From assembly GCA_963667175.2 (NCBI GenBank), contig CAXXXF010000016.1, positions 434,256 to 498,255 on the forward strand: a DNA stretch of 64,000 bases, in the 5' to 3' direction. The stretch is from Candidatus Latescibacterota bacterium (GTDB lineage Bacteria > Latescibacterota > UBA2968 > GCA-2709665). This document shows positions 40,368-55,822 of this stretch, in pieces (position 1 is the first letter of the stretch; each line of letters starts with the position of its first letter). The notes beneath the pieces are model-generated. The model ran no database searches and was not told where the DNA came from. It saw nothing but the letters and a program-made list of their open reading frames with translations. Both the position numbers and the translations under genes were made by a program.

Positions 40368-40411
40368 GCTGTTTCCGCCGGTCGACTCGCCGACCGGCGC
40401 TTTTGCAACCG

Positions 40412-40438
40412 CCTGCCTTGCCTGCGGTAGCAGGCAGG
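40412..40438. repeat. Palindromic micro-element copy 1 (27 nt)
   Basis: CCTGCCTTGCCTGCGGTAGCAGGCAGG between CG and CG, intergenic. Confidence 0.65.
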
Positions 40439-40485
40439 CGCGAATACCGCTGGAGATTCCAAAACAGCTTCTGAAGGAGACTGTC

Positions 40486-40734
40486 ATGACGTCGGAACAG
40501 GCCGCGGCGCTGAAAGAAGCCCTCGAATCCATGATGGACGCGATCGGAAAGAAGGAACCGATCACGGAACACCTGCTTCATCTGACCGCACTCCAGCGGA
40601 AGCTCGCGTCCGTCTCATCCCCGCAGTTGAATCACTTCCTGCAGAACAGAAGTTATACCAAGGCGTTGGAATACCTCCGGAACGGAGTCGTCATCGAGGA
40701 CCCGCGTCGACCCGCCTGCGACGACGACGCATAG
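40486..40734 (+). CDS. Small helical hypothetical protein
   Basis: ATG after AAGGAG; MTSEQAAALKEAL...LNHFLQNRSYTKALEYL. Confidence 0.75.
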   Translation: MTSEQAAALKEALESMMDAIGKKEPITEHLLHLTALQRKLASVSSPQLNHFLQNRSYTKALEYLRNGVVIEDPRRPACDDDA

Positions 40735-40782
40735 TCGCGCCGTGCCCGATCGATCCTAACGACCACGCAGAGAGAGTTCACC

Positions 40783-41550
40783 ATGGTAAAAGGCATCCGC
40801 CAACGCGCGCTTGACCGCGACCTGGTCGCGGGGACGTTCCTGAATCTGGGTTCGCCGGTAACGGCCGAAATCGCGGGGAAGAGCGGACTCGACTGGGTCC
40901 TGATCGACATCGAACACGGCGCGTCAGACCTGGAAACGTTGCGAGTCCAGCTTCAGGTCGTCTCCGGCACGCCCGCCGTGCCCATCGTCCGCATTGCCGC
41001 CAACGAACCCCCGCGTTTCAAGCGCGTGCTGGATATGGGCGCATCGGGCGTGATGGTGCCTTACGTGAGCACGGTGGCCGAGGCCGAGCAGGCGGTGGCC
41101 TCGACCCGCTATCCCCCGCGCGGCATTCGGGGTGTGGCGAAGTTGAACCGGGGCAGCGAGTTCGGCCGCGATTTCGATGACTATTTCGAATCCTCCCACG
41201 AGTTCCTCACGACCGTCGTACAGATCGAAACCCCGGAAGCCGTGGACGCCATCGACGATATCGCGGTGGTAGACGGCGTGGACGTCCTGTTCATCGGCCC
41301 CCTCGACCTCAGCGTCAATCTGGGGATTCCGCAGCAATTCGACCATCCCAGGTTTCTGGATGCCAGGGCCAGGGTCTCCGATGCCGCAAGGCGAGCGGGC
41401 AAAGCAGCGGGTATCCTGCTGCTGGACCCCGGTCACCTCGACGCCGCGGCGCGGGACGGATTCACTTTTGTCGCGCTCGGATCCGACGGCGGCCTCGTCG
41501 CGGCAGGCATGCAGAACATCGCGGCCGCATTCGATCCTCACAGGGGGTAG
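40783..41550 (+). CDS. HpcH/HpaI aldolase family protein
   Basis: DWVLIDIEHG, RYPPRGIRG, VQIETPEAV, DVLFIGPLDLS. Confidence 0.92.
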   Translation: MVKGIRQRALDRDLVAGTFLNLGSPVTAEIAGKSGLDWVLIDIEHGASDLETLRVQLQVVSGTPAVPIVRIAANEPPRFKRVLDMGASGVMVPYVSTVAEAEQAVASTRYPPRGIRGVAKLNRGSEFGRDFDDYFESSHEFLTTVVQIETPEAVDAIDDIAVVDGVDVLFIGPLDLSVNLGIPQQFDHPRFLDARARVSDAARRAGKAAGILLLDPGHLDAAARDGFTFVALGSDGGLVAAGMQNIAAAFDPHRG

Positions 41551-41572
41551 CGACACGCCGCGGCGGCCCGAA

Positions 41573-41732
41573 CAGTCCACTGAAAAAGTCGCTCCGCAGG
41601 CGAGGCCGAGGCATTGTGGCCGAAGACAAGGCGCGCGACCGACGCGAATCCCTGGATTCGGGGAGGGAGCGCAACGCCGTAGTTCGGCCACAAGGGCCGG
41701 ACGCAGCCCGGATGGGCTTTTTCAACGGGCTG
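41573..41732. mobile_element. MITE-like repeat (~160 bp), full copy
   Basis: Imperfect terminal inverted repeats CAGTCCACTGAAAAAGTC / GGCTTTTTCAACGGGCTG; right half recurs at 45888-45977 (inverted) and 60006-60084. Confidence 0.7.
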
Positions 41733-41771
41733 CTACGTTGGACCACGGGCGAAGGCGACGGGAAACCAACG

Positions 41772-42722
41772 ATGAGCGAATGCCGCACATTGAGGGAATC
41801 GATGAACGCGCGAGGGGTCTTCGTCTTTGTCATGACCCCGATGAAGACCACCCTGAACCGCCAGGGCGACTACCGGATCGATACGGCCGGATTGGAGAAA
41901 AACACGCGTTATTTCGCAGGGGTCAAGGGCCGGAAGACCCTGGTGATCTGCGGCGGTTCGGGGGAATTCTACGCCCTGTCGCCATCGGAAGTCAGAGACG
42001 TTGCCGCGGCGGCCGTTGCGGGCGCGGGGGGAAAGTGCGCAATCGTGTGCGGCATCGGCGGAAGCACCGGAACCGCCGTAAAGATGGCGGAAAACGCCCA
42101 GGAAGCGGGCTGCGACGCCCTGCTTGTGATGCCGCACGACCCGATCGTCGCTCGCGGAGAGGGGGCGATCTGGCGGCATCATTGCGCGATCGCGAAAGCC
42201 GCGCACGTCGGCATGATCCCCTTCCGGGCCCCGCGCCAACTCCTTTCAATCGATCTGGTAAAGCGGTTTTCCGGGATGGAACGGGTCGTGGCCATCAAGG
42301 AGGAGAGCAACGCGGTGGACTGGGTGCGTACCGGCTGCAGGGTTGTGGGCAACCGCGTACCCATCATCACCGGGGGCGGCGAGAATATGGCGCCCTATTA
42401 CTATCTCGCGGGCGCCAGGGGGTTCACGACGGGGATGGCCAACCTTACGCTGCCGACGTCCATCGCCTTGCACAACGCCTGCATTCGACGCCGCTGGAAC
42501 GCGGCGATGGAACTTTGCGACGTCTTCGAGCCGCTGACTCTTCTGAGGGGCGAACTCGGAACGCCCATGCTCAAGGCGGGGCTTGAAATGATGGGCCTGG
42601 CCGGCGGGCCGATGCGGGTCCCGCCGGAATCGCAATCGACGGGAACCCCGTCCGGCGGCGTGCTCACGGCAAAGGACCGCGCCAGGGTGCGACGCCTGCT
42701 AAAAAAAAAGGGAGTGCTGTAG
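41772..42722 (+). CDS. Dihydrodipicolinate synthase (DapA/NAL) family enzyme
   Basis: GGSGEFYALS, AGCDALLVMP, VVAIKEE (Schiff-base Lys), LKAGLEMMG. Confidence 0.85.
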   Translation: MSECRTLRESMNARGVFVFVMTPMKTTLNRQGDYRIDTAGLEKNTRYFAGVKGRKTLVICGGSGEFYALSPSEVRDVAAAAVAGAGGKCAIVCGIGGSTGTAVKMAENAQEAGCDALLVMPHDPIVARGEGAIWRHHCAIAKAAHVGMIPFRAPRQLLSIDLVKRFSGMERVVAIKEESNAVDWVRTGCRVVGNRVPIITGGGENMAPYYYLAGARGFTTGMANLTLPTSIALHNACIRRRWNAAMELCDVFEPLTLLRGELGTPMLKAGLEMMGLAGGPMRVPPESQSTGTPSGGVLTAKDRARVRRLLKKKGVL

Positions 42723-42801
42723 GCTGCACGCTCCAGCTCGACGCCCTCACGCCTCTGAGGGTCGAACGTCCCGCGATCCCGCGTCCGTCAACGGCCGGGA
42801 A

Positions 42802-44073
42802 TCAACCGGATCGCGGTCCGGACGTCGTCAGATTGCCTTCCCCGTCGAAGTTCATAGCTTCCGGTTCACCTGAGACCTCCACGTCGGGCAACGCCGAGAG
42901 TTCAGGCAGAAGGGACTCGGACGCCCGGAGGCGCTCCAGTTCCAGCGTCGAGCGTATCCGCATGACCCGCGCGTCCGGATTACCGCCGTTGCCGGACGCT
43001 CCAAGCGCGATCTCAATCGCCTCCCGGTCGGTTTCGCCCACGATGGGTATGTACGCGCGATTCAGGAACGTGCTGGTCATCGCGTTGGCATACGTCGCCT
43101 TGAAATCGATAGTGTCCACAAGCCGGCGCGTGGTCACGTCAGCCAGACCGATTCCATTGGCGTTGCCGTGCGTTTCGGGCGTCAGGTCCAGCACGACGAC
43201 CCGTCCGATACGCGGTGATTCCGGCTCCTCGATCCCAGCCAGCCATATCCGTCCGATGATGTTCGGGTCCATTCCCGTACCGCTGACGTTCTTGCCGATC
43301 CGGTCCACGATCAGGACGTCGATCCGTTCGACGGGCAGCCGCGGCATCAGTTGCCGGGCCTCATCCAGCAATTCCGGCTCGATCGCCTCCAGCTCGTCCG
43401 GCGCCACGGCAACCACTTTTGCGGTTTTCTCGTGGGCGTTTTCAAGGATCGCCACCCCCAGGGCAATGGGCGCCTCCCGAAGGATCACCCGTCCCCACGC
43501 CGGTATCACACGCGGAAGGCAGGCCGCGCCCATCGAATGCGCCAGCGTGGCGCCCCTGTGCGACCCCAGCCCGATCGTCATCATCTTCATCAATCCGCTT
43601 TCGAACGGGCCGCGAAACGACGTGTGCGGCTTGATCCGGTTCACCAGTACCACGGCGTCGGCCTCTTTCGCCAGCCGGTTCAGGACCACAGGAATGCCGT
43701 CATCCGTTTCCCCGACCTGTACCACGTCCATCGTGGCTTCGACGGGCGCTCCCATCGTGGATTCGTCGATGCCGTACGAGGCGAGGATCTCCTTCTGCCC
43801 GTCGGCCGTGGCCCCGCCGTGACTGCCCATCGACGCGAGAACGAACGGCATTCCCCCCAGTTCCCGGACGCAGTCCACGATGGCCCGGGTCAGCGGCGCG
43901 ATCCCGTGAATGCCGCGGCTGCCTGCGGTAATCGCGACCCGGTCGCCCGCGGAAATGCGTCCGCCCAGCGATGAGCTCATGACGCAACTTCGGGTCTGCG
44001 CGACGGGGTCCGGCAGGCTCACCGCGGCGAATCTCTGCCGCAATGGAAACATCCTGGGGAAATTCATTTCCAT
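42802..44073 (-). CDS. Lactate racemase (LarA)-domain/DUF362-like protein
   Basis: VAITAGSRGI, MGSHGGAT, NRIKPHT.F, ESGLMKM, GKNVSGTGMDPNIIGR, HGNANGIG. Confidence 0.8.
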   Translation of the reverse strand: MEMNFPRMFPLRQRFAAVSLPDPVAQTRSCVMSSSLGGRISAGDRVAITAGSRGIHGIAPLTRAIVDCVRELGGMPFVLASMGSHGGATADGQKEILASYGIDESTMGAPVEATMDVVQVGETDDGIPVVLNRLAKEADAVVLVNRIKPHTSFRGPFESGLMKMMTIGLGSHRGATLAHSMGAACLPRVIPAWGRVILREAPIALGVAILENAHEKTAKVVAVAPDELEAIEPELLDEARQLMPRLPVERIDVLIVDRIGKNVSGTGMDPNIIGRIWLAGIEEPESPRIGRVVVLDLTPETHGNANGIGLADVTTRRLVDTIDFKATYANAMTSTFLNRAYIPIVGETDREAIEIALGASGNGGNPDARVMRIRSTLELERLRASESLLPELSALPDVEVSGEPEAMNFDGEGNLTTSGPRSG

Positions 44074-44148
44074 CCTTCTCAGTCAGGTCAGGGCTTCGAA
44101 TGGCAGATCCGGGCGGGTCACAATCAGTCGGCGAGGAACCGGGGCCGC

Positions 44149-44997
44149 CTACGATATCCGGAACACCTCTGCCGCGTTTTTCGCCGTGATGCGTTCAATG
44201 GCATCCGTTGAGAGATCGGCTTCCCGTAGATAATGCAGCATCGGCGGCGTGCCCACGATCGAACACGCCGGCGACGGCCGCGTGTGGATGGTGTCCGTGG
44301 CGAACATCAACCGATGCTTCCATCGCTTCAGAAATTTCAGCCCGAATGCCGGGTCCCGTGTGATGGCGTTGAAGCCCGATTGCGCCGAGAGGTCCGCATA
44401 CAGATTCGCGTAATCCCGAAACAGTGACTCCAGACGCCCGCCGGGCGTCACCGGCCCCTCCGGATAGCGCTCGCCCTGTCCGATCTCCGCGGAGATCTCC
44501 CGCCAGAAATATTGCGCGTGGCCCACCCACTTCACGTTCCCGTAGGTCTTCAGCATCCGCTCAAAACCGGGCAATCCGGGTTCGTCTCGGTTGATCCAGT
44601 GGTCGATGTGCATCACGATTGCCAGACCCAGCCGGTCGCACGCCTCGTACACGCGCTGCTGCATCGGGTCGTCCACCGGCAGGCCGCACAGATTCTCGCC
44701 GTATCCCACGCAACCCTGGTCCATGTAGTGTTCGAGGATCGGGTACGGATTGAAACTCCCCGGGGACCGGTGTCTCGGATCCACGGCGCACAACGGAAGC
44801 AGCCGGTCCCGGTGCGGCCGGGTCAGCTTCAGCAACTCCTTCGTCGTGAGGTAGAAGTCAAGCTCTTCCGGCACTTCCACCGCCATCACAATCCCCTTTT
44901 CTATCCCGTGGCGGTCCATCCAGCGCAGAAGCTTCCCCGGGGTCAGGCCGGGGTCTTCCAGAACGAGTTGTCCAAGATGCAAGTGCGTGTCGATCAT
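44149..44997 (-). CDS. Amidohydrolase family 2 protein (paralog B)
   Basis: MIDTHLH, AIVMH, GHAQ, LYADLSA, LMFATD, KNA. Confidence 0.88.
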   Translation of the reverse strand: MIDTHLHLGQLVLEDPGLTPGKLLRWMDRHGIEKGIVMAVEVPEELDFYLTTKELLKLTRPHRDRLLPLCAVDPRHRSPGSFNPYPILEHYMDQGCVGYGENLCGLPVDDPMQQRVYEACDRLGLAIVMHIDHWINRDEPGLPGFERMLKTYGNVKWVGHAQYFWREISAEIGQGERYPEGPVTPGGRLESLFRDYANLYADLSAQSGFNAITRDPAFGLKFLKRWKHRLMFATDTIHTRPSPACSIVGTPPMLHYLREADLSTDAIERITAKNAAEVFRIS

Positions 44998-45030
44998 TGT
45001 CTGTTCTCTCGTGTGCGCCGAAGGGCCCCT

Positions 45031-45852
45031 TCAGAGGCTGAACACCTTCTCGGCATTCTTCCGCGTGATGCGTTCAAACGCGTCTTTCGACAGCGGCGCG
45101 TTCTTGATGTACTCGACAATCGGGGTTTCCTGGCCCACCCTGAGATAGTCGGTGGCGAACATCAGCCGATGTTTCCATCGCTTCAGGAACTGCAGGCCGA
45201 ACACCGGGTCCCGCGTGATCGCCCCGTAACCGGACCCCGCGGAAAGGTCCGCGTACAGATTCCGGTACGTTCGAAACAGCGCGTCAACCCTGCCGCCCGG
45301 GGCCACTTTCCCACGGGGATAACCCACTCCCCCTTCCACGTTTCCCGATATCTCGCGCCAGAAATGGGGTGAATGCCCGATGAATTTCACGTTTCGGTAC
45401 GTCTTCAGCATGTTCTCAAACCCGGTGAGGCCGGGTTTGTCCCGGTTGATCCAGGCATCGAAATGCATGACGATGGCGATATTCAGCCGGTCGCACGCCT
45501 CGTAGACCCGCTGCTGCATCGGATCGTCCACCGGCAATCCGCACAGATTCTCCCCGTATCCGACGCAACCCTGGTCGATGTAACCGGCAATGATGGGATA
45601 GGGCTCGAACCGCCCCGGATACCGGTGACGGGGATCCACGGCGCAAAGCGGCTTCAGCCGGTCGCGATGCCGGCGCGTCATTCTGAGCAGTTCCTTCGTG
45701 GTCACGAAGAAGTCCAGTTCCTCCGGCGTCTCCACCGCCATCACCACCGCTTTTTCGATGCCCTGCCGGTCCATCCATCGGAGCAGTTTGGTGGGCGTCA
45801 ATCCCGGGTTGTCGAACAGGAGTTGCCCAAGGTGTACGTGTGTGTCGATCAT
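45031..45852 (-). CDS. Amidohydrolase family 2 protein (paralog A)
   Basis: MIDTHVH, AIVMH, GHSP, LYADLSAGSG, LMFATD; tandem paralog of 44149-44997. Confidence 0.88.
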   Translation of the reverse strand: MIDTHVHLGQLLFDNPGLTPTKLLRWMDRQGIEKAVVMAVETPEELDFFVTTKELLRMTRRHRDRLKPLCAVDPRHRYPGRFEPYPIIAGYIDQGCVGYGENLCGLPVDDPMQQRVYEACDRLNIAIVMHFDAWINRDKPGLTGFENMLKTYRNVKFIGHSPHFWREISGNVEGGVGYPRGKVAPGGRVDALFRTYRNLYADLSAGSGYGAITRDPVFGLQFLKRWKHRLMFATDYLRVGQETPIVEYIKNAPLSKDAFERITRKNAEKVFSL

Positions 45853-45887
45853 TTCCGTTGCCCCATCTGAAAACGTCTGACCCGTAA

Positions 45888-45977
45888 CAGCCCGTTGAAA
45901 AAGTCCATCCGGGCTACCTGCCTGTGCGTTCGCACGCAGACAGGCGTCCGGCCCTTGTGACCGAAATACGGCGTTGC
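45888..45977 (-). repeat. Partial MITE copy carrying a 28-nt palindromic insertion (45917-45944)
   Basis: Reverse complement matches the right half of 41573-41732 except for CCTGCCTGTGCGTTCGCACGCAGACAGG. Confidence 0.8.
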
Positions 45978-45993
45978 AGGATCCGCCACCGGC

Positions 45994-47142
45994 TCACCCG
46001 TCTTTCGGACCCTTTCGAAGTGTGTCCATGATGAGCAGAGCAATCGACTGCACGGTCTCGTCGAGGTCCGAATTCTCGAATGCCGGCACGCCGGATCCGT
46101 CGCCAACGTCCAGAATGTGCTGTTGGATTTTCATGATCTGGTCCAGGTATTTGACGTACCGGTGCCGCGTGCGACGGACGGCGCCCTTTCCCCGACTCTC
46201 AAACCGATCTGTAAATTGTTGCAAATCAGTTAGATATAGATTGACATGAATGAAAAGCGCCTTTTGGGCGTATTCTTCCAGTTCGAGCAGGCCGGGCATC
46301 AGATGAACGCCGTCCACGATCAGGCTGGCATTTTCGTCGATCGCCCGTTCGATGGTCGCCCGCACCCCCACGCAGACGCGGGCCGCCTGCTCGCGAAAGC
46401 CGTAGATGACCGGATCGGGCGCCTCGACGGTGGGTACGGGAATCGCCTCCCACGCCGCGTATGACGACACCTGCAGCGCGGGCATGAGATCGGACGCGAT
46501 CATCAATCGCATCACATGTCGGATCTCGTCGGTCGACGCCACCCGCGACACCCGCAGCAGATTGGCCAGCGCCACGCCGACCGTTGTCTTGCCGACGCCC
46601 GTCGCGCCGCCGATCAGGACGATCAGGGGCGTCGTTGACCCGCCCTTGCGAAACTGGTTCCAGATGCCGTACCGCTCCGCAAACGCGTCACCGGAATCGC
46701 TTCGGAGCATCTTCAGCGTCGCTTTCAGAATGTCGTCGCGGGTAACCACCGTCCTGTCGTTCTGGATGAAGTCGCCCTCGATTCGCTCGGCGATCCGGTA
46801 GGCCTGGCTTTCGTCCACGCCGGTGATGGCAAGGGAGTCGGAGAGATGGTCTTTCGAGAACGGCCGGGTGCCCAGATCGTCCTCGACCAGGATCTGCCGC
46901 GACCGCGGCGCCCAGAAAACGCCGTCTCCCACGGTACGGTCGGCGAAAAGTTCGCGCGCGTGGGTATGGACCAGATCGATCATCTTGCCGGCGGGCACCT
47001 TTTTCTGCTTCTGAATGGAACTCCTGACCCGGTCTGCGACCTGGTACGCCTCTCTGAACGAGAACCCCTGCTCCAGCAGATAGTGCGTGAGCATTCCTCT
47101 CAGAAACGGAATGCGCCGCCCGCTATCCACGATGATGGCCAC
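45994..47142 (-). CDS. 2-phosphoglycerate kinase-like protein (ATP-cone repeats + P-loop)
   Basis: PFLRGML and PFSKDHL ATP-cone starts; LIGGATGVGKTT, STDEIRHVMR, LQVSSY, IVDGVHL; GTG start inferred. Confidence 0.8.
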   Translation of the reverse strand: MAIIVDSGRRIPFLRGMLTHYLLEQGFSFREAYQVADRVRSSIQKQKKVPAGKMIDLVHTHARELFADRTVGDGVFWAPRSRQILVEDDLGTRPFSKDHLSDSLAITGVDESQAYRIAERIEGDFIQNDRTVVTRDDILKATLKMLRSDSGDAFAERYGIWNQFRKGGSTTPLIVLIGGATGVGKTTVGVALANLLRVSRVASTDEIRHVMRLMIASDLMPALQVSSYAAWEAIPVPTVEAPDPVIYGFREQAARVCVGVRATIERAIDENASLIVDGVHLMPGLLELEEYAQKALFIHVNLYLTDLQQFTDRFESRGKGAVRRTRHRYVKYLDQIMKIQQHILDVGDGSGVPAFENSDLDETVQSIALLIMDTLRKGPKDG

Positions 47143-47327
47143 GGTTGCCCCCCGAGACAACGCGGTGAAAACCCGCGTTCTGACTGAAATAAGACAGCGC
47201 CGCCGCGAAGAACGGCTCTGCTGGAATTTGGCCGGCCGGCCGGCGGATGTCAACCGAAAACGCACGCGACCGACGTTGGACGTCGCCCTCTCGAACGCTC
47301 GAGCGGCAGGTCCGTTTACAGGAATGA

Positions 47328-48467: not shown

Positions 48468-48526
48468 CGAAAAGACTCCTTTCACGAGCCGGACGGTTTC
48501 TCTGTTCAGAAAACGGATTCCGTCGT

Positions 48527-48556
48527 ATGATAACAGCGACGGAGGCGGGCAGTCAA
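48527..48556 (-). promoter_or_regulatory. Putative promoter for the M24 peptidase
   Basis: Minus strand TTGACT, 18-nt spacer, extended -10 TGtTATCAT. Confidence 0.45.
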
Positions 48557-48611
48557 GCGAATTGGCGGCCACATAAACAAAAATCGGGTACGATCCACTG
48601 AAAGGAACGCT

Positions 48612-49646
48612 ATGGCATCTTTTCGTGCCGGTGTGGTCGGCGCGGGGAGCATTTCCCGGAGACACATCAGCGCATGGCAGGCCCATCCCCACGTCGACCT
48701 GACCTGCATCGCGGACATCAGCGAGGAGGCCGGGAACAACCGCGCGGATGAATACGGCATCCGAAGCCGGTATACCAGCTACCTGGAGTTGCTCAACGAG
48801 GAACGCCCCGATATCGTCAGTATCTGCACGTGGATGAATGCCCACGCCGAGATCGCCGTTGCCGCGGCGGAGGCCGGCGTTGCCGGCATCCTGTGTGAAA
48901 AACCGCTGGCCGGCAGCCTGGAGGAGGTGGACCTCATCCTCAACGCCGCCAGTCGGCACGGAACGCGCGTCGCCGTGGGGCACCACCACCGCTTTCGCGG
49001 CGCGTGCGAGAAGGGCCAGGACCTGGTGTCGGGAGGCGCGATCGGTCAGCCCGTGCTCTTTTTCGGCAGCACAACCGGCGGCCTGCTCAACAACGGCGCC
49101 CACTTCGTCGACGTCGCGCGTTTTCTGATGGACGATCCGGCGCCCGCGTGGGTGATCGGGCAGGCGGTACGACACACCGACCGGCACGAGCGTCACGACC
49201 CTATCGAAGACCTCTGCGCGGGGATCGTCGCGCTCGAAAACGGCGCCCGCGTCGTGATCGACAGCGATATGCCCGAACCCGCGCCGCGGGACGGCGCGAT
49301 GACGCTTCATGGAACGGAGGGCGCCCTCGTCGTCACCTCCAGGGGCGCACGGCTGCTCGACGGAAACGGATGGCATGAGGTCGACGCCGCCCAGGACGCC
49401 GACGTCGGCGTCGCGCAGGCCGCGGAACTCGTGGACTGGATGGAAGGCCGGGTGAAGGAGCATCGCAACGCCATCCGGAAGAACCGCACGGTGATTGAAA
49501 TTCTGATGGGCCTCTACGAATCCGCCCGCATCCGCGACACGGTCGCCTTTCCCCTCGGTTCGGGGCCCTCGCCCCTGCGCCGTATGATCGAGAGCGGCGA
49601 CCTGCCCGTTACGATTCCGGGGAAGTATGATATCCGGATCAGGTAA
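48612..49646 (+). CDS. Gfo/Idh/MocA family oxidoreductase
   Basis: GVVGAGSIS Rossmann motif, PDIVSICT, ILCEKPLA, HHHRF. Confidence 0.92.
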   Translation: MASFRAGVVGAGSISRRHISAWQAHPHVDLTCIADISEEAGNNRADEYGIRSRYTSYLELLNEERPDIVSICTWMNAHAEIAVAAAEAGVAGILCEKPLAGSLEEVDLILNAASRHGTRVAVGHHHRFRGACEKGQDLVSGGAIGQPVLFFGSTTGGLLNNGAHFVDVARFLMDDPAPAWVIGQAVRHTDRHERHDPIEDLCAGIVALENGARVVIDSDMPEPAPRDGAMTLHGTEGALVVTSRGARLLDGNGWHEVDAAQDADVGVAQAAELVDWMEGRVKEHRNAIRKNRTVIEILMGLYESARIRDTVAFPLGSGPSPLRRMIESGDLPVTIPGKYDIRIR

Positions 49647-49876
49647 AAACCGGATCAGGATTGAACAGGATGAGGGACCGATTGAACAGAATTACACCAA
49701 ATTCGAAAAAAGAAAACCACAAAATCGGCCACAAAAAGCACAAAAGGCACAAAGGGACGTTGGCTCCATTCACCGCCAGTGACCTGAAGGCACATGGAAG
49801 TCCGACGTCAAATCGCCTTTATTCACTTGCATAACTTCGAATTAACGTCCCGGAAAAACGACGAATCGAGATTAAC

Positions 49877-50401
49877 ATGAGACGATATCTGATTCTGGTT
49901 GTTGCACTTGCAGCGATTGCTCCGGAGGTTTGGGCGGAGACGGAAAACCTTTCCAGGACAAAGGGTTCGATCGAGGAGTTCGAACTCTACACAAAATGCC
50001 TTGGTGTGATTCTCGTGGTTGAGCGCCTGTCCGACGACGCAAGAAAAATCGGACTCGTACGGGAGGAGATTGTCTCTGCCGTGGAGTCCAGGTTGCGCGC
50101 CGCCGGCCTGTATCAATCCGGTTATTTCGGGTTCCCCGAGGGGTCCGTCGTTTTCTTCCCGCACCTTTACGTGGATGTCAATGTGAAGGGAAACGCGTTC
50201 AGCGTTCTCATTGAATTGAAAAAGTGGGTCAACGAACCCCTTTCCGGTCAGCTGAACTTCGCGCGAACATGGCGGAGAGGGACGCTCGGGACCCTTGGGT
50301 CGGGAAGCCCCTCCTTCATGTCTGCCGTGCGCAGCCTGACGGATGAGTTTGTCGACGAGTGGAACAAGGTGAACAAGCCGCACGGGAAGTGCGTTGAGTA
50401 A
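49877..50401 (+). CDS. Hypothetical exported protein
   Basis: Signal-peptide-like MRRYLILVVALAAIAPEVWA; VESRLRAAGL, DEFVDEW. Confidence 0.7.
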   Translation: MRRYLILVVALAAIAPEVWAETENLSRTKGSIEEFELYTKCLGVILVVERLSDDARKIGLVREEIVSAVESRLRAAGLYQSGYFGFPEGSVVFFPHLYVDVNVKGNAFSVLIELKKWVNEPLSGQLNFARTWRRGTLGTLGSGSPSFMSAVRSLTDEFVDEWNKVNKPHGKCVE

Positions 50402-50460
50402 GGCTGTCCGCCATACAGGGGCAATTCCGGTGTCATTATTGAAACAGGAGGATTGAATAT

Positions 50461-51603
50461 ATGATGAGTTTCCGATTTTTCTACATCGCCTGTCTCCTCT
50501 CCCTGCTGCTCTCCTGCTCCAAGTCCCAGGACCCGATCTCCAACGATACGATAAGAATCGGACTCCTGGTTTCCGGCGATCGTTCCTCGTATGCAGACGC
50601 GGCCCAGTTGGCCGTAGACGAGATCAACGCCAACGGCGGTCTGCTCGACAGAACCGTCGAACTGGTAACACGAATCAATATCGAGGAGGCGTCCGCGGCG
50701 GTCCAGGGCGCTCAACAGATGATTCAGGATGATGGGGTCTTCGCGATCCTCGGCCCCAACCGCTCAACCCACGCGGTCCAGGTGGGACCGGTTGCTCAGC
50801 GGGCGCAGATTCCTATGATCACGACCACGGCCACGAACCCGAACGTGACGCGGGCGGGCGACTTCGTATTCATGGCAGCTTTTACTGATCAATTTCAGGG
50901 GTCGGTTCTCGCCCGTTTTGCGTGGGAAGATCTGGGTAAGTCCGTGGCCGCGGTCCTGACTCTGACGGGTGACGTTTATACTGAAGGGATTTCAATGTTC
51001 TTTGTTTCCCATTTCACGGAGCCAGGCGGGACGGTCGTCGCAAACGAGGTGTATACTGCCGGCGATACCACCTATACAGAACAGCTTGGGCGGATCTCCC
51101 AGGCCGAACCGGACGTGTTCTTTATTTCGGGATTGGTTTCGGAGTTGACCCACGTGGTACGGGAAACGAGAACTGCTCCCGTACTGAACGCCCAGGGCGC
51201 ACCCGTGACCCTCCTGGGCGCTGACGCTTGGGACAATCCTCTATTCTTGAGTGAAGCAACAGCAGAGGTGGAAGGGAGTTACTTTAGCGGACACTTTTCC
51301 GCGGAGTCAACGGAACCGGGTGCGAGGATGTTTGTGGAGGCGTACGCGGCCGCAACCCAACGCACCCCAAGCGGTGGGGATGCGGTCAGCTATGACGCTC
51401 TTCGGCTGCTCTCTGAGGCGGTAGAACGGGCTGGAAGTTTTGAGGGAGCGGCAATCCGTGACCAGCTGGCGGCAACGCGAGATTACCGGGGAGCGACTCA
51501 GATCGCGCGGTATGATGAAAACCGGCATCCGACCAAGAGTGCGGTGATATTGACGATCCGGGATGGGGAGAGAAGGTTCTTCAAGGAGGTTGGGGCGGAA
51601 TGA
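50461..51603 (+). CDS. Branched-chain-amino-acid-type (LivK-like) substrate-binding lipoprotein
   Basis: Lipobox LLSC, AQLAVDEINANGGLL, AILGP, ATNPNVT, YDAL. Confidence 0.88.
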   Translation: MMSFRFFYIACLLSLLLSCSKSQDPISNDTIRIGLLVSGDRSSYADAAQLAVDEINANGGLLDRTVELVTRINIEEASAAVQGAQQMIQDDGVFAILGPNRSTHAVQVGPVAQRAQIPMITTTATNPNVTRAGDFVFMAAFTDQFQGSVLARFAWEDLGKSVAAVLTLTGDVYTEGISMFFVSHFTEPGGTVVANEVYTAGDTTYTEQLGRISQAEPDVFFISGLVSELTHVVRETRTAPVLNAQGAPVTLLGADAWDNPLFLSEATAEVEGSYFSGHFSAESTEPGARMFVEAYAAATQRTPSGGDAVSYDALRLLSEAVERAGSFEGAAIRDQLAATRDYRGATQIARYDENRHPTKSAVILTIRDGERRFFKEVGAE

Positions 51604-51873
51604 AGGTGTAGAGAGTGACCGGGACAAGGTGTTCGCGTGATGCAACAAGGCCCCTGGGTTATTCCTCGATTGCTAAAATTGCCCGGGGCACGTTGACGAC
51701 GTGCCATTCACGACTTTATCGCTGAGACAATAGTTGTTCGAGCGAATACCGAAACGATCTTAGACTGGCCTGATAGAACCGATCCTGCTGTGGCCGCACT
51801 ACTACCTATTGACTTCTAATCGTGGTCGTGCTTATAGTCTGATGTCTCCCCTGAAGAGGAAGGAGCCATCGAG

Positions 51874-53020
51874 ATGCCTAAGAGATACGTTGTGCGTCTG
51901 AGCCCCGAAGAACGCGAGTGTCTGCAGGATCTGGTAAACAAAGGCAAGACGCAAGCCTACCGAATCAGGCACGCCCACATACTACTGAAGGCGGACGCGG
52001 AGGGTCCGGCGTGGCTGGACCGTCAGATCACGGAGGCCTTTTCGTGCAATCGGTCTACGGTTGAGGGCATCCGTAAGCGTTATGTGTTGGGGGGCCTGGA
52101 GTCGGCCCTTGACCGAAAGAAGCGCGCGCATCCACCCACACCAAGGAAGCTGGATGGGGCCAAGGAAGCCCGCTTGATCGCGTTGGCTTGCAGTGAACCT
52201 CCAAAGGGACGTAAGCGGTGGACGCTGAAGCTGTTGGCCGATGAGCTCGTGGCCTTAGAGGTCGTGGACAGCATCTCCTACCGAACGGTGCAGCGTACGC
52301 AAAAAAAACAAACTTAAGCCTCACCTGAGAAAGTGCTGGGTGATACCGCCCAAGCAGAACGCCGCGTTTGTCGCCGCGATGGAGGATATCCTGGACATCT
52401 ATCAGCGGCCGTATGACGCCAAGAAGCCCGTGGTCAATATGGACGAACACCTGGTACAATTGGTCAAGGAGACGCGGTTTGGGGTCGCAACACGTCCTGA
52501 CAGCCCCCAACGCTTTGACTACGAGTATGAACGGAACGGAACCGCCGTGAACTTCATGTTCACCGAACCCCTTTCGGGCTGGCGCAAGGTGCGTGTAAGA
52601 CAACGCAAGACCGCACTGGACTGGGCACACGAGATCAAGGAGCTTCTCTCTACCGACTACCGTGACGCCGAAACCGTCGTGTTGGTGTGTGATAACCTCA
52701 ACACGCACAAGCCCGCCTGCCTGCCGGCAGGCAGGCGGCACTCTACAAGGCCTTCCCACCCGAAGAAGCGCGCCGGCTGGCCAGGCGTCTCGAAATCCAC
52801 TATACGCCCAAGCACGGGAGCTGGCTCAACATTGCCGAGATCGAACTGAGCGTCTTGAGCAGCCAATGCTTGAAGGAACGCATCCCCGATATCGAATCCC
52901 TCAAAGAACAGACTTCCGCATGGATGCAACAACCAATGCCAGACTGTCGATTGGCGGTTCACGACCGACGATGCTCGCATCAAGCTGAAAAAGCTATACC
53001 CTGACTACGCCGATAATTAG
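51874..53020 (+). pseudogene. IS630 transposase with programmed -1 frameshift plus two disabling frameshifts
   Basis: HTH OrfA; A8C slippery site at 52301-52309 joins KNKLKPH; MDE, DNLNTH, TPKHGSWLNIAEIE, DWRFTTDDARIKL; 20-nt insertion at 52716-52735 and a second shift near 52935. Confidence 0.9.
52716..52735. repeat. Palindromic micro-element (20 nt, perfect palindrome) inside IS630 tnp
   Basis: CCTGCCTGCCGGCAGGCAGG; removing it restores HKPAALYKAF. Confidence 0.9.
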
Positions 53021-53043
53021 CCGTCAATAGGTAGGAGTATAAA

Positions 53044-53817
53044 ATGCGAATTTTGATCTGCCTCATAGTGTTGGGGTCGACTCAGCTAGTTTATGGAGGG
53101 TGTCCAGCACCTACTAGTCAAGAACTACAGGAGTGGGAACAGGGATTAGACGAGGGCAAGAATAGTTTGGTGTATGAGATTGCTGATCGTCTGTACCACT
53201 TGCCCGAGGAACCTTGGGCGGAGGATCATAGGCGATTGCTTCTTAAGGTCCTTAACCGCCATCAGGAAATACGATACAATTTAGGTAAGGATCGACCGGT
53301 CATTGGGGAAGGTGTTATACCGAAGGACCGCGGCCATTATGCGGCTAATATGATTGAAATGGCCGCTTGGCAGGAGGATACTCGATTTATTCCGTTTATT
53401 GCAGATCATATTGGTGGTGGACTACTACCTGAAATCAGTTTGGCCAATCTCGGTGAGCCTGCGTTCGAAGCGGCGATGGCAAATCTAGATGAAAGATTCG
53501 ATGGTTGGTCAAATCAACAAGGTGCGGCAGGTGTGTTTGAGATATGGTTAGGAAAGAAGACACCTTTCCTATTGCACGGGATTAAACGGGAGCGTTTAAG
53601 AAAAGAACTCTTTCGTATGTCCTTGGCCGAAGTCAAGGAAGCACGATTCTTTGCAATTAACGTCTTGCGGCACTTTAATGACAGAGAGGTATTTGCACAC
53701 CTTGAATCGATAAGCCGTAACGATACCTTTGCTCTGGATGGCAGGTTTCCGGTTCGGTCCCACGCCCAGGAAGCGTTGGATTATATGCGTACGAACGGGG
53801 GGGTGGGTGGGTTCTAA
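53044..53817 (+). CDS. Hypothetical exported helical (HEAT-like) protein
   Basis: AGGAG RBS, signal-like N-terminus, helical repeats (LANLGEPA; VRSHAQEAL); AT-richer than the core. Confidence 0.7.
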   Translation: MRILICLIVLGSTQLVYGGCPAPTSQELQEWEQGLDEGKNSLVYEIADRLYHLPEEPWAEDHRRLLLKVLNRHQEIRYNLGKDRPVIGEGVIPKDRGHYAANMIEMAAWQEDTRFIPFIADHIGGGLLPEISLANLGEPAFEAAMANLDERFDGWSNQQGAAGVFEIWLGKKTPFLLHGIKRERLRKELFRMSLAEVKEARFFAINVLRHFNDREVFAHLESISRNDTFALDGRFPVRSHAQEALDYMRTNGGVGGF

Positions 53818-54866
53818 CGAGAACGGCTCACCGAGCGCACAACAATCCCCTAGGCCTAAAATAAGCGAGTATTGATATTTGCTGACCAGAGTCTCAGATT
53901 TGTGCGACGTTTTGTTTGAATGAAGTGTATGTGTTGGGTATTGAGGTATGCGTGAGGTCGTTTTGGCGTTTGCGGAGCGTCTGTTGGTGTGTTAGAGGGC
54001 GCGGTCAGGGGTGTGTGGTCGGTGTAGGGTTGTGGTGTAGGCGTAATTGTCCGCTACGTCGTGTTAGACGTTGTGTATGGGTTTGTATGTGATCACGATT
54101 CTTGATTCGTGTCCATGTGAAGCCGGTGCGTTGGATGGTGCTCCATGCGCCCAAGAGTCTGTTGAGTGACGGCTGATAGCCGATGATGCGTATGGTGGTG
54201 CTTCGTGCGTGTTTCACGACCCGACAGGGATAAAGGATGATGTGGTTGAGGAAGGTGCGAAAGTCCATCCGGATATAGTGTCGGCGGTGTTTTTTTAGAT
54301 GCATCATCAGTGCCAACCACGACTTGACGTTCCATGCCAGTGCGGCGATGACCATGTAGGCCCAGTTGCTGACCAGGTCATACAGGGGCACGCGCAGGGC
54401 ATTGACGCCGTTTTTGAGCTGTTCGATGACGTTTTCCTGGTCGCATCGTTGGTTGGCAGCCGCGACGACCTGCGCGGGGGTGAGGTCGCTACGTGTGGTG
54501 ATGTAGAAGAAGTATCGGACATCGTCGAAGAGGGTGTGCTCCCCTTTGGTCTTACTGATGTTTTTGCGTAGGGCCACGATGCGGTAGGACCGCTTGCACT
54601 TGCCGGGCTGATAGTCAAATGCAGCGACGTCTTCGAAGTTGAGCGCCAACTTGAGGTAGCCTCGTTGCCTGACGATGCGCTGCTTTTCATTGTCGCGCCG
54701 CTTTCTCTTCTGTGTCGCTTCAGGCCGGTGCAGGCGCTGCCAGTCGGCTTCTTCAAGGGCCTCGGCACGTGTTTGTAAGGCTTTATTACAATCCATCCCA
54801 AAGATAAAATCGACGTCCTCGGCCCAGCCATCGAAGTGCGCCGTCAGCGAAAAGTCCGTGTCTGCG

Positions 54867-54885
54867 CCTGCCTGCTGCAGGCAGG
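54867..54885. repeat. Palindromic micro-element (19 nt) inside IS1380 tnp
   Basis: CCTGCCTGCTGCAGGCAGG; removing it restores RVCLRADTDFSLTAHFD in frame with ORF 54005-54796. Confidence 0.9.
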
Positions 54886-55335
54886 CGCAGACACACGCGC
54901 CCCGCGTGGGGCTTCACCAGGTCAATGGCCGCATCAATCCAGGGGGCGGCGCCCTGGTGAGACGGCGCGTTGCAGGGACGATTGACCACGTACAGCACCT
55001 CTTTGGTGTTGGCCAACGACACGATCAGGGGGGCATACCCCCACACGCCCTTGTAGGAGATGTCCATACCGCCCTTCTTCTCTCCATACGTCGGGGCACT
55101 CGTGCCGTCCACGTCGATGTAGGCTACCCCCGACAACAAGTCGGCAGCGCGTTTGCACCACAGCTTGGGACGTACCGCGTTAATGCAGTCCATCAGCGTG
55201 ATCACGTCCGCCTGACGAAAGCGACGCATGAAGTCGCCCGCCGTGGTCGGGTCCGGGATGACCTCCGTGTTCAGGGCATTCATATACGCCTCGTCGTGCC
55301 GCAAACGCTCGATGTCCTCCAAGCACGTGCCACCG

Positions 55336-55368
55336 CCTGCCTGCCGAGAAAGGCACGGCGCAGGCAGG
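55336..55368. repeat. Palindromic micro-element (33 nt, in frame) inside IS1380 tnp
   Basis: CCTGCCTGC-15 nt-GCAGGCAGG; removing it restores NVMCGGTCLEDIE. Confidence 0.9.
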
Positions 55369-55822
55369 CACATCACGTTGTACAAAAGGTTCAACACGTG
55401 ATCCGACTCATGATACGGCAGATGCACCTTCAACAACTTCAGCCTCTCGTCGAGCTGCTTGACCAATCCCAACTTCGTCACCAGACGATGCGCGGCGACA
55501 ATGCCACCATAGTTCATCGCTTCTGCCGAGGCGCTGACCTCGTAGTGCACACCACCGCTGCCAAACATCGGCCTGGCTTGCGCACAAAATCCACGGACAC
55601 GCTGATGACGGGCACGGACACGACGCCTGCATTTTTCACTGTTCCTGCGGCTGTCTTTTGTCGATATTCTCTTCACCGGAAAGGCCCCTTATGATTGAGT
55701 AGCAATTTCCCGTCAGATACTGCTAACTCTCTCTAAGGTAAGTCTTTCCGGTACTTTTGTATACAAGAAACTGAAAAAATCCGCTTTTTTAAGGCCTAGG
55801 CTGATATAGGTGGGATTGTGTA

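Follow-up and report, generated by a model that had tools for sequence, protein, structure and literature searches.

Five very short palindromes lie in a 64,000-nt stretch of DNA (hereafter the window) from a sponge-associated Candidatus Latescibacterota MAG of 5,520,873 bp, with about 60% GC and not rich in HIP1. Three of them sit inside the transposase genes of insertion sequences (IS). What are these palindromes, and how did they come to be there? A sequence-only reading of the window had proposed a non-autonomous unit far smaller than typical MITEs, and our analysis supports an element of that kind, very small, non-autonomous and precise in its insertion. All five copies are present with the lengths it gave (27, 28, 20, 19 and 33 nt). 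The copies and their hosts are as follows.

40388..40480, no strand: small dispersed repeat that hosts the 27-mer (positions 239-331 of the query 40150-40700)
40412..40438, no strand: 27-nt hairpin (left arm with one additional T), inside the repeat of about 90 nt; an ORF begins downstream of it at 40487
41572..41737, + strand: MITE-A copy of 166 bp with all three hairpin sites empty (junctions 41635/41636, 41671/41672 and 41703/41704)
45917..45944, no strand: 28-nt hairpin of type II with arms CCTGCCTG and CAGACAGG, at site 3 of a partial MITE-A copy
51874..52988, + strand: broken IS630-like transposase gene (Pfam HTH_32 at 51874-52317 and DDE_3 at 52340-52849)
52716..52735, no strand: 20-nt perfect palindrome without inner hairpin, which shifts the frame of the IS630-like gene
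54005..55676, - strand: IS1380-like transposase gene in two ORFs (Pfam DDE_Tnp_1_4, model positions 22-208 in 54786-55676 and 249-433 in 54005-54796)
54867..54885, no strand: 19-nt element that splits an 18-bp perfect palindrome of the IS1380-like gene exactly at its centre and shifts the frame
55336..55368, no strand: complete 33-nt element with outer stem, GC bulge, inner stem and loop, which keeps the reading frame of the IS1380-like gene

A full unit measures 27-36 nt, most commonly 33 nt, and the whole family spans 19-36 nt. Its conserved outer stem of 7-9 bp, in which CCTGCCTGC pairs with GCAGGCAGG, leads to a 2-nt GC bulge, an inner stem of 4-7 bp whose sequence covaries between subfamilies, and a loop of 4-5 nt. 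Because the GC bulge is present on one side only, the unit has an orientation. The 19- and 20-mers are the same unit minus the inner hairpin. The element has no coding capacity.

To find empty sites for the window copies, 90 nt of flank from each side were joined and blasted against the same genome. Gapless empty paralogues were found for the 28-mer (61 copies), the 20-mer (4), the 33-mer (2) and the 19-mer (2, on contigs C6 and C4), so that four of the five window copies are insertions, as had been proposed. Deletion of the copies reopens the frames, that of the IS630-like gene included, and brings back the peptides HKPAALY, CLRADTDFS and NVMCGGTCL; the two frameshifts attributed to the 19-mer and the 20-mer are likewise real. 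At the IS630-like gene an X2 contig is without the 20 nt, and at the IS1380-like gene an X1 contig joins 55334 to 55368, omitting 33 nt. At the empty MITE-A copy, loose ends of other contigs at 41635 and 41671/41672 run on into hairpin sequence. For the 27-mer no empty paralogue was found within the genome. Its host repeat, which has numerous matches in all 15 genomes of the genus, has its halves directly joined without the 27-mer at at least four places in a hairpin-free relative (G004; query positions 239-263 and 289-331 abut). The orthologous locus of another relative (G009, 95% identical) has the 27-mer, and two sister copies of this variant are found on contig C6.

Across the genome, the pattern suggested by the sequence-only reading (CCTG[CT]CTT?G.{0,30}CAG[GA]CAGG) gives 317 matches at 279 loci, compared to 0 matches in each of 168 genomes for the pattern reversed without complementation. 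A reverse arm follows within 60 nt for 321 of 660 forward arms, compared to 50 of 604 in an everted control. The loci span 16-56 nt with modal lengths of 19, 28, 30 and 33, and 38 of them are nested or overlapping; the 279 simple copies comprise 94 distinct sequences with one common layout. An empty paralogous site exists for 200 of the 317 matches, and for 149 it is gapless at 85% identity or more. Among 41 relatives the counts range from 0 to 165.

The 33-mer is shared with many other phyla, where it is found in isolates and viral contigs as well, and its arms are identical across them. The isolates Thiorhodospira sibirica and Pelomicrobium sp. G1 are among those with copies. Five genomes of other phyla have 43, 23, 19, 43 and 2 copies. 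The 43 copies of Thiorhodospira sibirica ATCC 700588 are nearly identical among those listed, with nested copies and an identical 33-mer in at least five unrelated contexts, while tiny CPR genomes have 1-4 different copies. The spread of the hairpin is patchy and burst-like.

In these other phyla the hairpin also enters coding genes. Thirteen of the 14 ORFs that span it translate it in a single codon phase, as LPA...QAG, and Pfam domains flank the in-frame hairpin on either side; its orientation in coding regions is 7 versus 6. Peptides of this type, mentioned in the sequence-only reading, do occur in predicted proteins. For example, 7 of 8 close homologues of an HsdR protein lack exactly the 11 residues of the insertion, and solved GGPPS homologues of a polyprenyl synthase (locus L030) show an 11-residue gap at the hairpin; in both alignments the extra residues amount to 33 nt. 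The remark that core coding sequences contain no copies fails beyond the window, as in-frame copies are found in HsdR, DNA methylase, TsaD, polyprenyl synthase and phage capsid genes. An Rfam scan of 12 loci from other phyla gave only tRNA and C4 antisense RNA at the gathering score, both away from the hairpins.

Could the hairpin be a structural element useful to its host, such as an mRNA stability hairpin, a protein binding site or a site acting on supercoiling as proposed for REP/BIME, with arms under selection and copies made by replication template switching from one hairpin to another without a dedicated enzyme? The identity of the arms across phyla and the retention of different copies in tiny CPR genomes would fit, as would insertions at the apices of other hairpins and terminator-like stems, the lack of a linked dedicated transposase among the Y1 loci examined (below), and a conservation of the hairpins at least threefold higher than that of their MITE backbones. 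Nonetheless, a range of 0 to 165 copies among close relatives rules out a generally needed function. It also shifts the frame of genes and sits in coding regions in either orientation, and template switching fails to explain exact foot-to-foot boundaries at sites nearly or wholly free of homology. We therefore regard this explanation as unlikely.

A second explanation is that the hairpins are not mobile alone and belong to larger repeats, MITEs or BIME-like mosaics, that spread by amplification or gene conversion. Much of the copy number is compatible with it: both flanks lie in DNA repeated at least three times at 135 of the 279 loci and one flank at another 76, and the dominant 33-mer of one relative (G016) has identical flanks every time. 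Of the 87 near-full MITE-A copies in the genome, 41 have none of the three sites occupied, and each pair of sites shows all four presence/absence combinations. Each site nearly always holds one hairpin variant, and occupied copies are somewhat more alike than random subsets, which means that much of the spread within MITE-A is hitchhiking or gene conversion and not repeated transposition; the tree of MITE-A backbones gives no signal in either direction. In this genome the larger part of the copy number arose second-hand, with hairpins riding in MITEs that amplified. Thirteen of the 17 28-mers at site 3 are identical, in backbones that differ by 9%, and overall the hairpins in MITE-A diverge by 0-3% compared to 8-9% for their carriers. 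Judged from these divergences, the MITE-A hairpins appear to be either recent or constrained. One homologous site has up to seven different occupants in ten copies, which, together with the four combinations among the MITE-A copies, points to recurrent gain or loss.

Amplification of larger repeats does not account for the hairpins that stand alone. Bare copies in the IS630- and IS1380-like genes have gapless empty paralogues, solo copies in HsdR and polyprenyl synthase match exact 11-residue gaps in homologues, the Thiorhodospira 33-mer recurs in unrelated contexts, and unique DNA hosts 24 of 113 independent sites. The hairpins are improbable as mere passengers, and the solo copies instead argue for an element that inserts by itself.

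The insertion sites bear on how it does so. Empty sites are gapless once the copies are removed, so insertion is exact from stem foot to stem foot with no target base duplicated. The insertion point lies mostly between G and C: among 70 oriented contexts in this genome, G is found at -1 in 62 and C at +1 in 58. At the window copies the site reads CG^C on at least one strand and CG^T at the MITE copy, as had been noted. In other phyla the flanks are mostly not G..C, with G at -1 in about 20 of 34 counted by eye. We detected no target word longer than the G at -1 in the hairpin flanks, and in the oriented flanks of this genome, which show just G at -1 and C at +1, a GTAG or CGTC tag is absent.

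These flanks could also describe the shortest possible MITE, namely the bare terminal inverted repeats of a DDE transposon moved as a duplex with a 2-bp GC target duplication. Most sites of this genome can be written as a GC duplication around a core of 18-34 nt, and inverted repeats would produce apparent covariation in the inner stem. The sequence-only reading had left insertion without duplication and a 2-nt GC duplication side by side; the former fits better, since 8 of the 70 contexts lack G at -1 and 12 lack C at +1, other phyla mostly depart from G..C, and two proteins gain 33 nt and not 35. Terminal inverted repeats with target duplication as in MITEs were not found, given the gapless empty sites and proteins that gain exactly 11 residues. 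No longer element with these ends exists in the genome, where arm pairs at 800-3200 nt, as a parent IS would have, show no excess (64 compared to 132 in the everted control). Finally, 19-36 bp is far below the sizes known for duplex synaptic complexes. A minimal MITE is thus very improbable.

An artefact of assembly or library preparation (hairpin adaptors or chimeric palindromes), conceivable for a window taken from a metagenome-derived assembly, since library preparation can create palindromes, can practically be dismissed in view of 94 variants with compensatory changes, recurrence in contigs of four independent runs, occurrence in many assemblies from different groups and assemblers, in isolate genomes and in viral contigs, and in-frame read-through in conserved genes. 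The copies are very probably independently inserted mobile hairpins.

Where do they land? Destinations include other hairpins (nested copies, REP loops and the centre of a palindrome), MITEs and IS genes. DNA with at least three copies hosts 47 of the 113 independent sites compared to 32 of 600 random 120-mers (5%). This excess confirms the enrichment that the sequence-only reading had asked about, yet hitchhiking in MITEs together with tolerance of neutral DNA can account for it, so that it does not establish targeting, nor the parasite of parasites or IS silencing proposed there. At 11 of 113 sites the junction falls within the loop of a hairpin whose stem has at least 6 bp, compared to 58 of 1500 control G^C sites, and the flanks fold at -6.76 kcal/mol compared to -5.56 kcal/mol in controls (P = 0.00025). 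The preference for apices is weak in this genome: with stems of at least 4 bp the counts are 23 of 113 and 252 of 1500 (P = 0.36), and an earlier test was also non-significant. Most Thiorhodospira contexts likewise show junctions at hairpin apices.

Since the unit is too short for bending and synapsis as a duplex and carries a bulge that specifies the strand, we infer that the hairpin would move as a folded single strand. A putative trans-acting enzyme would cleave at the stem foot and also join the hairpin into DNA that is briefly single-stranded, for example at replication forks and in extruded hairpin loops. HUH-type or other structure-specific ssDNA transesterases are candidates for this chemistry. 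A lagging-strand mechanism might have given an orientation bias; none is seen relative to local GC skew (31 versus 33 distinct contexts, with replichores approximate in an assembly of 18 contigs), and this counts against such a route. We hold a single-strand hairpin mechanism with a trans-acting enzyme to be plausible, at slightly less than even chances.

Mobilisation by a RAYT or HUH protein, as had been suggested, found no support in linkage. About 30 RAYT/IS200-like Y1_Tnp loci in 11 genomes are each flanked by their own, different palindromes, with two exceptions: a pseudo-RAYT (C7:62893 of this genome) between MITE-like repeats that bear hairpins, and a CCTG 20-mer 1.7 kb from a Y1 gene at L170. 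The five RAYT-like loci of this genome have GTAG-tagged REPs of other sequence next to their genes. Outside this genome the hairpin is absent from 8 Y1 loci in one set and 7 in another, and a further 13 have their own palindromes, L170 alone also having the hairpin 20-mer. In a relative with 109 hairpins (G015), the sole Y1_Tnp matches are an IS200-type gene and its broken second copy. Because each Y1 locus carries its own palindromes, a link to RAYT or IS200 is unsupported, and we doubt that the trans-acting enzyme is an HUH Y1 protein.

IS200/IS605 elements transpose without target duplication and use imperfect hairpins with extrahelical bases as recognition elements. Our element resembles them in both respects, and single-strand chemistry would fit its size. 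It differs in that a single hairpin makes up the entire element, in place of two subterminal ones, in the lack of TnpA beside any copy examined and in the lack of orientation bias against GC skew; as for the target, a preference for G at -1 was all that we detected, with no fixed word of 4-5 nt found. Integron attC sites have R''/R' core sites (AAC / GTT) and lie in cassette arrays; the arms CCTGCCTGC/GCAGGCAGG and the dispersed copies without cassette arrays led us to reject this assignment. CRISPR repeats were rejected as well, the copies being solitary or nested, mostly one per 8-kb locus, with no regular array. The SDR repeats of heterocyst-forming cyanobacteria reportedly measure about 21-27 nt, occur nested within one another and within further repeats, and are inserted with no obvious duplication (Elhai et al.); no enzyme is known for them. 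Their sequence and host range differ from those of our element, whose host here is a Candidatus Latescibacterota MAG and not HIP1-rich.

The closest known kind is the REPs. REPs, BIMEs and REPINs are imperfect palindromes of 20-40 bp in tens to hundreds of copies, with several subfamilies per genome and mosaic clusters, sometimes intragenic and in frame, and associated with IS elements and other repeats (Di Nocera 2013, PMC3733652; Bertels and Rainey 2011, PMC3116915). Our hairpin is likewise a short imperfect palindrome in many dispersed copies (279 loci). In contrast to REPs, it is without a GTAG or CGTC tag and is not the palindrome that flanks RAYT genes (those of this genome have GTAG-tagged REPs of their own), and it inserts as a single hairpin and not a doublet, and keeps the same arms across many phyla. 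With the CGTC superfamily it shares the lack of a dedicated transposase and nothing else. Rickettsia palindromic elements are found in frame in many unrelated protein genes with a conserved peptide (PMC10969869, PMC3733652); they measure about 100-150 bp and are confined to Rickettsia and relatives. Our hairpin is similar in lying in frame in unrelated protein genes, in other phyla only, whereas it measures 19-36 bp, adds 11 residues and occurs in many phyla. The literature searched, with subscription journals and supplements outside reach, contained no description of the element, though one may be in print.

Taken together, we think it probable that the copies are an untagged, REP-like palindromic micro-element that inserts exactly and may move by a single-strand mechanism. 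More speculatively, and with the odds somewhat against it, the 19-36-nt hairpins may be one homologous, self-contained pan-bacterial mobile family, among the smallest known. Such a family would move as a folded single strand with the help of an enzyme other than a linked RAYT or an IS200 transposase, either a novel protein acting in trans or a conserved enzyme of the host, and would cross phyla on phages and defence islands. Its arms would be shaped to read LPA...QAG in one phase in either orientation, which would allow it to colonise coding genes, including those for restriction-modification and phage capsid proteins, and other mobile DNA.

If our reading holds, a bacterial transposition unit can be as small as one hairpin of 19-33 nt without target duplication, and one family would be common to Latescibacterota, PVC phyla, Proteobacteria, Acidobacteria, CPR bacteria and phages. 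This raises the question of what enzyme would do the cutting and joining at the hairpin foot, for which Thiorhodospira sibirica ATCC 700588 is usable. For annotation, the hairpin breaks the frames of IS genes, places 11-residue LPA..QAG loops in enzymes, restriction-modification proteins among them, and splits repeat families that repeat finders assume to be unbroken. In sponge symbionts it would be a marker of recent genome dynamics.

The window (C16:434256-498255) belongs to a 5.52-Mb, 18-contig assembly of about 60% GC, and its DNA is also present in contigs of sponge-metagenome runs. The five palindromic micro-elements claimed by the sequence-only reading, hereafter hairpins, are all present in the window sequence with the coordinates and lengths proposed:

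Hairpin copies in the window with their hosts, and an empty host copy
From 40412, 27 nt, in a small repeat
From 45917, 28 nt, in MITE-A, a 166-bp MITE
From 52716, 20 nt, in an IS630-like gene
From 54867, 19 nt, in an IS1380-like gene
From 55336, 33 nt, in an IS1380-like gene
41572-41737, fully empty MITE-A copy

Across the assembly, the search pattern of that reading gives 317 matches that merge into 279 loci, 38 of which are nested or overlapping. Match lengths peak at 19 nt (n = 51), 20 nt (n = 16), 27-28 nt (n = 45), 30 nt (n = 36), 33 nt (n = 81) and 36 nt (n = 15). This abundance is far beyond chance because a forward arm is paired with a reverse arm within 60 nt in 321 of 660 cases compared to 50 of 604 in the everted control, the arm octamer is about twofold more frequent than its reversed word (478 versus 215), and the reversed, non-complemented pattern has no match in any of the 168 phylum genomes searched. 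The tiny hairpin family is real and abundant.

The 279 simple copies comprise 94 distinct sequences with a single common layout: an outer stem 7-9 bp long and constant in sequence, an unpaired GC dinucleotide on one side only of the stem, an inner stem of 4-7 bp with subfamily-specific sequence and compensatory changes, and a loop of 4-5 nt. A second group, the 28- and 30-mers (including the window copy at 45917), has this layout with one mismatched outer-stem pair. The 19- and 20-mers correspond to the outer stem alone and are derivable from the 33-mer by losing 13-14 nt; they are also found as young solo insertions in IS630 and IS1380. An arm-pair search of the assembly found no bigger parent element that shares the ends of this hairpin.

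To find empty sites, the flanks of each match were joined and compared with the assembly using BLAST. An empty paralogous site was found for 200 of the 317 matches, gapless at 85% identity or more for 149. In the window, gapless empty paralogues number 4 for the 20-mer in the IS630-like gene (Pfam HTH_32 and DDE_3), 2 for each of the copies in the IS1380-like gene (DDE_Tnp_1_4) and 61 for the MITE 28-mer. Removing the hairpins reopens the host frames that hold three peptides singled out by the sequence-only reading, as it had claimed. For the 27-mer at 40412, the assembly contains no empty paralogue. Its host is a small repeat of about 90 nt, the halves of which abut at at least 4 places in the hairpin-free relative G004; the orthologous locus of relative G009 (95% identical) holds the 27-mer, and the intergenic sequence of more distant species differs.

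Four of the 20 listed sequencing runs, all available as contigs, were also compared with the window, and the comparison speaks for its covered parts only. The contigs without the 20-, 19- and 33-mers are diverged; they are probably paralogous IS copies and add no support beyond the paralogue test. Contigs of all four runs join window position 41668 to 54864, skipping 13,195 nt. Since both ends fall at hairpin sites, this join is most likely repeat-induced and not a deletion.

Both flanks lie in DNA of at least three copies at 135 of the 279 loci compared to 32 of 600 random 120-mers, and the association of hairpins with repeats is real. For the flank classes, the loci were collapsed to 113 independent sites:

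Flank classes of the 113 independent hairpin sites
At least three copies of both flanks: 47
At least three copies of one flank only, mainly close to the end of a MITE: 35
Flanks in two copies: 7
Unique flanks: 24

Such an association can arise without targeting: hairpins can ride in amplifying MITEs, neutral DNA can tolerate them, and hairpin-rich repeats can offer hairpin targets. The main carrier is MITE-A, with 87 near-full copies, in which three sites are filled in every pairwise combination and each site by essentially one hairpin variant. This 166-bp element is bounded by terminal inverted repeats, offers three fixed sites that accept hairpins, and is present at 41572-41737 of the window and about 87 other places in the assembly. 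Filled copies resemble one another somewhat more than random subsets do. On a tree of the MITE-A backbone, label changes equal those of shuffles; the tree is uninformative, and the probable reason is the low signal in 166 bp.

Pairwise difference of hairpins and backbone at the MITE-A sites
Site 1, 30-mer, 8 copies: hairpin 0.000, backbone 0.0845
Site 2, 19-mer, 35 copies: hairpin 0.030, backbone 0.078
Site 3, 28-mer, 17 copies: hairpin 0.017, backbone 0.091

The low divergence of the hairpins compared to the backbone points to recent arrival, homogenisation or constraint. In other repeat families, up to 7 different occupants are found at one homologous site in 10 copies, which needs repeated insertion or an exchange of interiors between copies that share arms. 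Hairpins spread in part by hitchhiking.

The target was profiled from 70 distinct contexts of the assembly, oriented by the bulge. G is found at -1 in 62 and C at +1 in 58; G or C predominates at -2 and -3, and G occupies +2 in 40. The sequence-only reading had left two options, insertion without duplication or a GC duplication. Since the hairpin begins with C and ends with G, GC-flanked sites can indeed be written as a 2-nt GC duplication. Of the 70 contexts, the 8 without G at -1 and the 12 without C at +1 do not fit this description, nor do most flanks in other phyla, and it is contradicted by two protein alignments with exactly 11 added residues. Insertion without target duplication is therefore the simpler description of the two; the hairpins insert exactly, without duplication.

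Some insertion sites are the apices of other hairpins. For example, the 54867 copy splits a perfect palindrome of 18 bp exactly in the middle, and one site is the loop of a palindrome flanking a RAYT-like gene. Hairpin copies nest in one another, the nested copies being located at the stem-loop boundary of the host hairpin. For stems of at least 6 bp, 11 of 113 junctions are within a hairpin loop versus 58 of 1500 control G^C sites; for stems of at least 4 bp there is no difference (23 of 113 versus 252 of 1500, P = 0.36). An earlier, cruder test for a palindromic-target preference in the assembly was not significant, and the folding test is weakly positive, for long stems only.

A narrower search motif, the strict pattern, has 165 copies in the genome under study, 0-105 in genomes of the same genus, and 109 and 99 in two other genera of the family; relatives G004 and G008 are hairpin-free. 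Most of the remaining phylum has no strict-pattern copies; a match is found in 25 of the 168 phylum genomes including the one under study, and in 15 of the 21 genomes of its own family when that genome is left aside. The dominant hairpin interior differs from genome to genome. Such patchy, burst-like copy numbers are characteristic of a mobile element. The broader pattern has a 21-nt match at C14:322172-322192 and at L011:2790-2810 of relative G016. These are paralogous open frames, each about 1080 aa long and from two genera, and the match occupies the same relative place in both. It could be an old insertion that became fixed, or a false positive that reflects conserved coding sequence.

The hairpin family spans phyla. 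Using the exact 33-mer frame and one genome per species, a cross-phylum scan gave at least 109 loci, and 55 of the 109 matches listed have an inner stem of at least 4 bp on the expected side. Among the matches listed, 37 of these 55 full-layout loci are not Latescibacterota as labelled in their records. The hosts among them include Verrucomicrobiota, Lentisphaerae, Kiritimatiellae, Planctomycetota, Methylomirabilota, Acidobacteria, Omnitrophota, Elusimicrobia, Thermodesulfobacteriota and other Deltaproteobacteria, Patescibacteria and Dehalococcoidia, as well as two isolates, Thiorhodospira sibirica and Pelomicrobium sp. G1. Phylum assignments from single contigs need care as MAG binning can misplace contigs; isolates and multi-contig cases are independent of binning. 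Some 33-mers are identical across phyla, such as CCTGCCTGCCGCGCTCCGCTTGGCGCAGGCAGG in the genome under study, Planctomycetota and a Nitrospira MAG.

Strict-pattern copies in genomes of other phyla
Thiorhodospira sibirica isolate (L065): 43
Planctomycetales MAG, 1.4 Mb, partial (L090): 43
Lentisphaerae MAG (L037): 23
Desulfarculaceae MAG (L021): 19
Omnitrophota MAG, 1.2 Mb (L081): 6
Patescibacteria MAG, 0.8 Mb (L039): 4
Omnitrophota MAG, 2.2 Mb (L066): 3
Syntrophaceae MAG (L093): 2
Parcubacteria MAG, 0.9 Mb (L063): 1
Kaiserbacteria MAG, 0.9 Mb (L110): 1

A match is also present in 16 viral contigs, 11 of them with the full architecture, and in one group of these contigs a prohead-protease/capsid fusion ORF holds the hairpin. 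Rfam has no match at the hairpins of 12 loci scanned, and HIP1, examined as a test of cyanobacterial origin, is not enriched in the genome under study.

Hairpins are tolerated in frame. We considered 14 long ORFs spanning the 33-mer (11 from other phyla and 3 from Latescibacterota), and 13 share one codon phase. The resulting peptide of 11 residues, LPA[AP]xxx[AR]QAG, is encoded in either orientation (7 one way and 6 the other), and the one exception reads PAC...GR. Because stop codons are absent from all three phases of the 33-mer, differing tolerance of the encoded peptides is the most likely source of the bias. The host genes are unrelated: two N6_N4 DNA methylases, two HsdR subunits that carry the hairpin at different positions, a SNF2/PLD protein, a DUF1156 methylase, TsaD, a polyprenyl synthase, a GH20-domain protein, an FHA protein and DUF1802. 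Aligned with the polyprenyl synthase, solved geranylgeranyl diphosphate synthases are 11 residues short in total around the insert. For HsdR, exactly 11 residues are absent in 7 of 8 close homologues (75-82% identical), and the eighth and most distant holds another hairpin variant at the equivalent place. In the genome under study, few copies lie in convincing genes and these show no phase bias. As a side observation, of the 11 other-phylum genes that hold the 33-mer in frame, 6 are of restriction-modification or defence type (the two N6_N4 methylases, two HsdR, SNF2/PLD protein and DUF1156 methylase; L035, L089, L070, L093, L081, L095), a raw count from a small sample.

The sequence-only reading had suggested a HUH/RAYT-type transposase or a nuclease as the mobilising enzyme. 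The RAYT idea found no support: RAYT-like genes carry their own palindromes, and among relatives the presence of Y1 genes is no guide to copy number. Matches to PF01797 were sought in 41 relatives, the genome under study and 10 genomes of other phyla, and the loci were then inspected. The RAYT-like genes of the genome under study have HUH and Y motifs and are each flanked by their own palindromes, namely GTAG-tagged REPs at the genes on C7, C8 (17431-18174) and C12 and a different palindrome, in doublets, at the one on C3. A pseudo-RAYT at C7:62893 is the sole RAYT-like locus there between hairpin-bearing MITE-like repeats. Relative G004 has 0 copies with 2 PF01797 matches, and relative G006 has 30 copies without a match. 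Y1_Tnp genes occur in 9 of the 10 genomes of other phyla; no hairpin is near any of 8 Y1_Tnp loci or 7 IS200-type loci in other phyla, and own perfect palindromes bracket all 13 CPR and Omnitrophota Y1 loci. For want of linkage at the loci inspected, RAYT/IS200 was rejected as the mobiliser.

Other palindromes were observed beside these genes. A second, GTAG-tagged family of tiny palindromes (about 29 nt, at least 17 sites) lies inside RAYT-like genes at C7:59766-59794 and 63134-63162, separating the HUH motif from the Y motif and reading VGAGLKPAP, and in tandem units downstream of the C8 gene (C8:18465-18497 and 18911-18942). At C3:192250-194000, a RAYT-like gene with an intact HUH motif (C3:192478-193110) has REPIN-like doublets of another 20-nt palindrome on both sides. 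This palindrome has 5-7 mostly local copies, and its loop is elsewhere a target of the CCTG hairpin. A 0.8-Mb Patescibacteria genome (G173, L170-L179) has 11 Y1_Tnp-like genes; the 10 inspected are each bracketed, about 700 nt apart, by a perfect palindrome of their own (19-39 nt), a minimal HUH element set that is unusually dense for a CPR genome.

A DUF1156 methylase with an embedded Y1-like domain was also rejected: it is found in relatives G007, G009 and G011, and the orthologue in the genome under study (983 aa, C3:~208315) lacks the insert. Such methylases of 1200-1440 aa with a Y1_Tnp-like (RAYT-like) domain are additionally seen in G016 and at L095:3470-7615, and orthologues without it in relatives G001 and G004; the domain could have arisen by fusion or by in-frame insertion of a RAYT gene. 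In G016, gene pairs flanked by rare hairpin variants proved to be paralogous coding sequence or MITE contexts, with no enzyme. No common family was found among 142 neighbouring ORFs scanned across phyla, and hairpin orientation in the genome under study shows no bias relative to GC skew (31 versus 33).

The small dispersed repeats of cyanobacteria resemble the hairpin family, as do intragenic REPs and RPEs. The family differs from the GTAG/RAYT system, DDE MITEs and IS200/IS605 derivatives, and could be assigned to none of them. No published description was found in the literature searched; the supplementary REP lists of PMC3733652 may include the family. REPs are the closest known kind, the likeness being to the untagged or orphan situation of CGTC REPs, which PMC3733652 describes as likewise being without a dedicated transposase. 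We infer that the hairpin moves as a folded single strand, which an enzyme acting in trans would cut at the foot of the stem.
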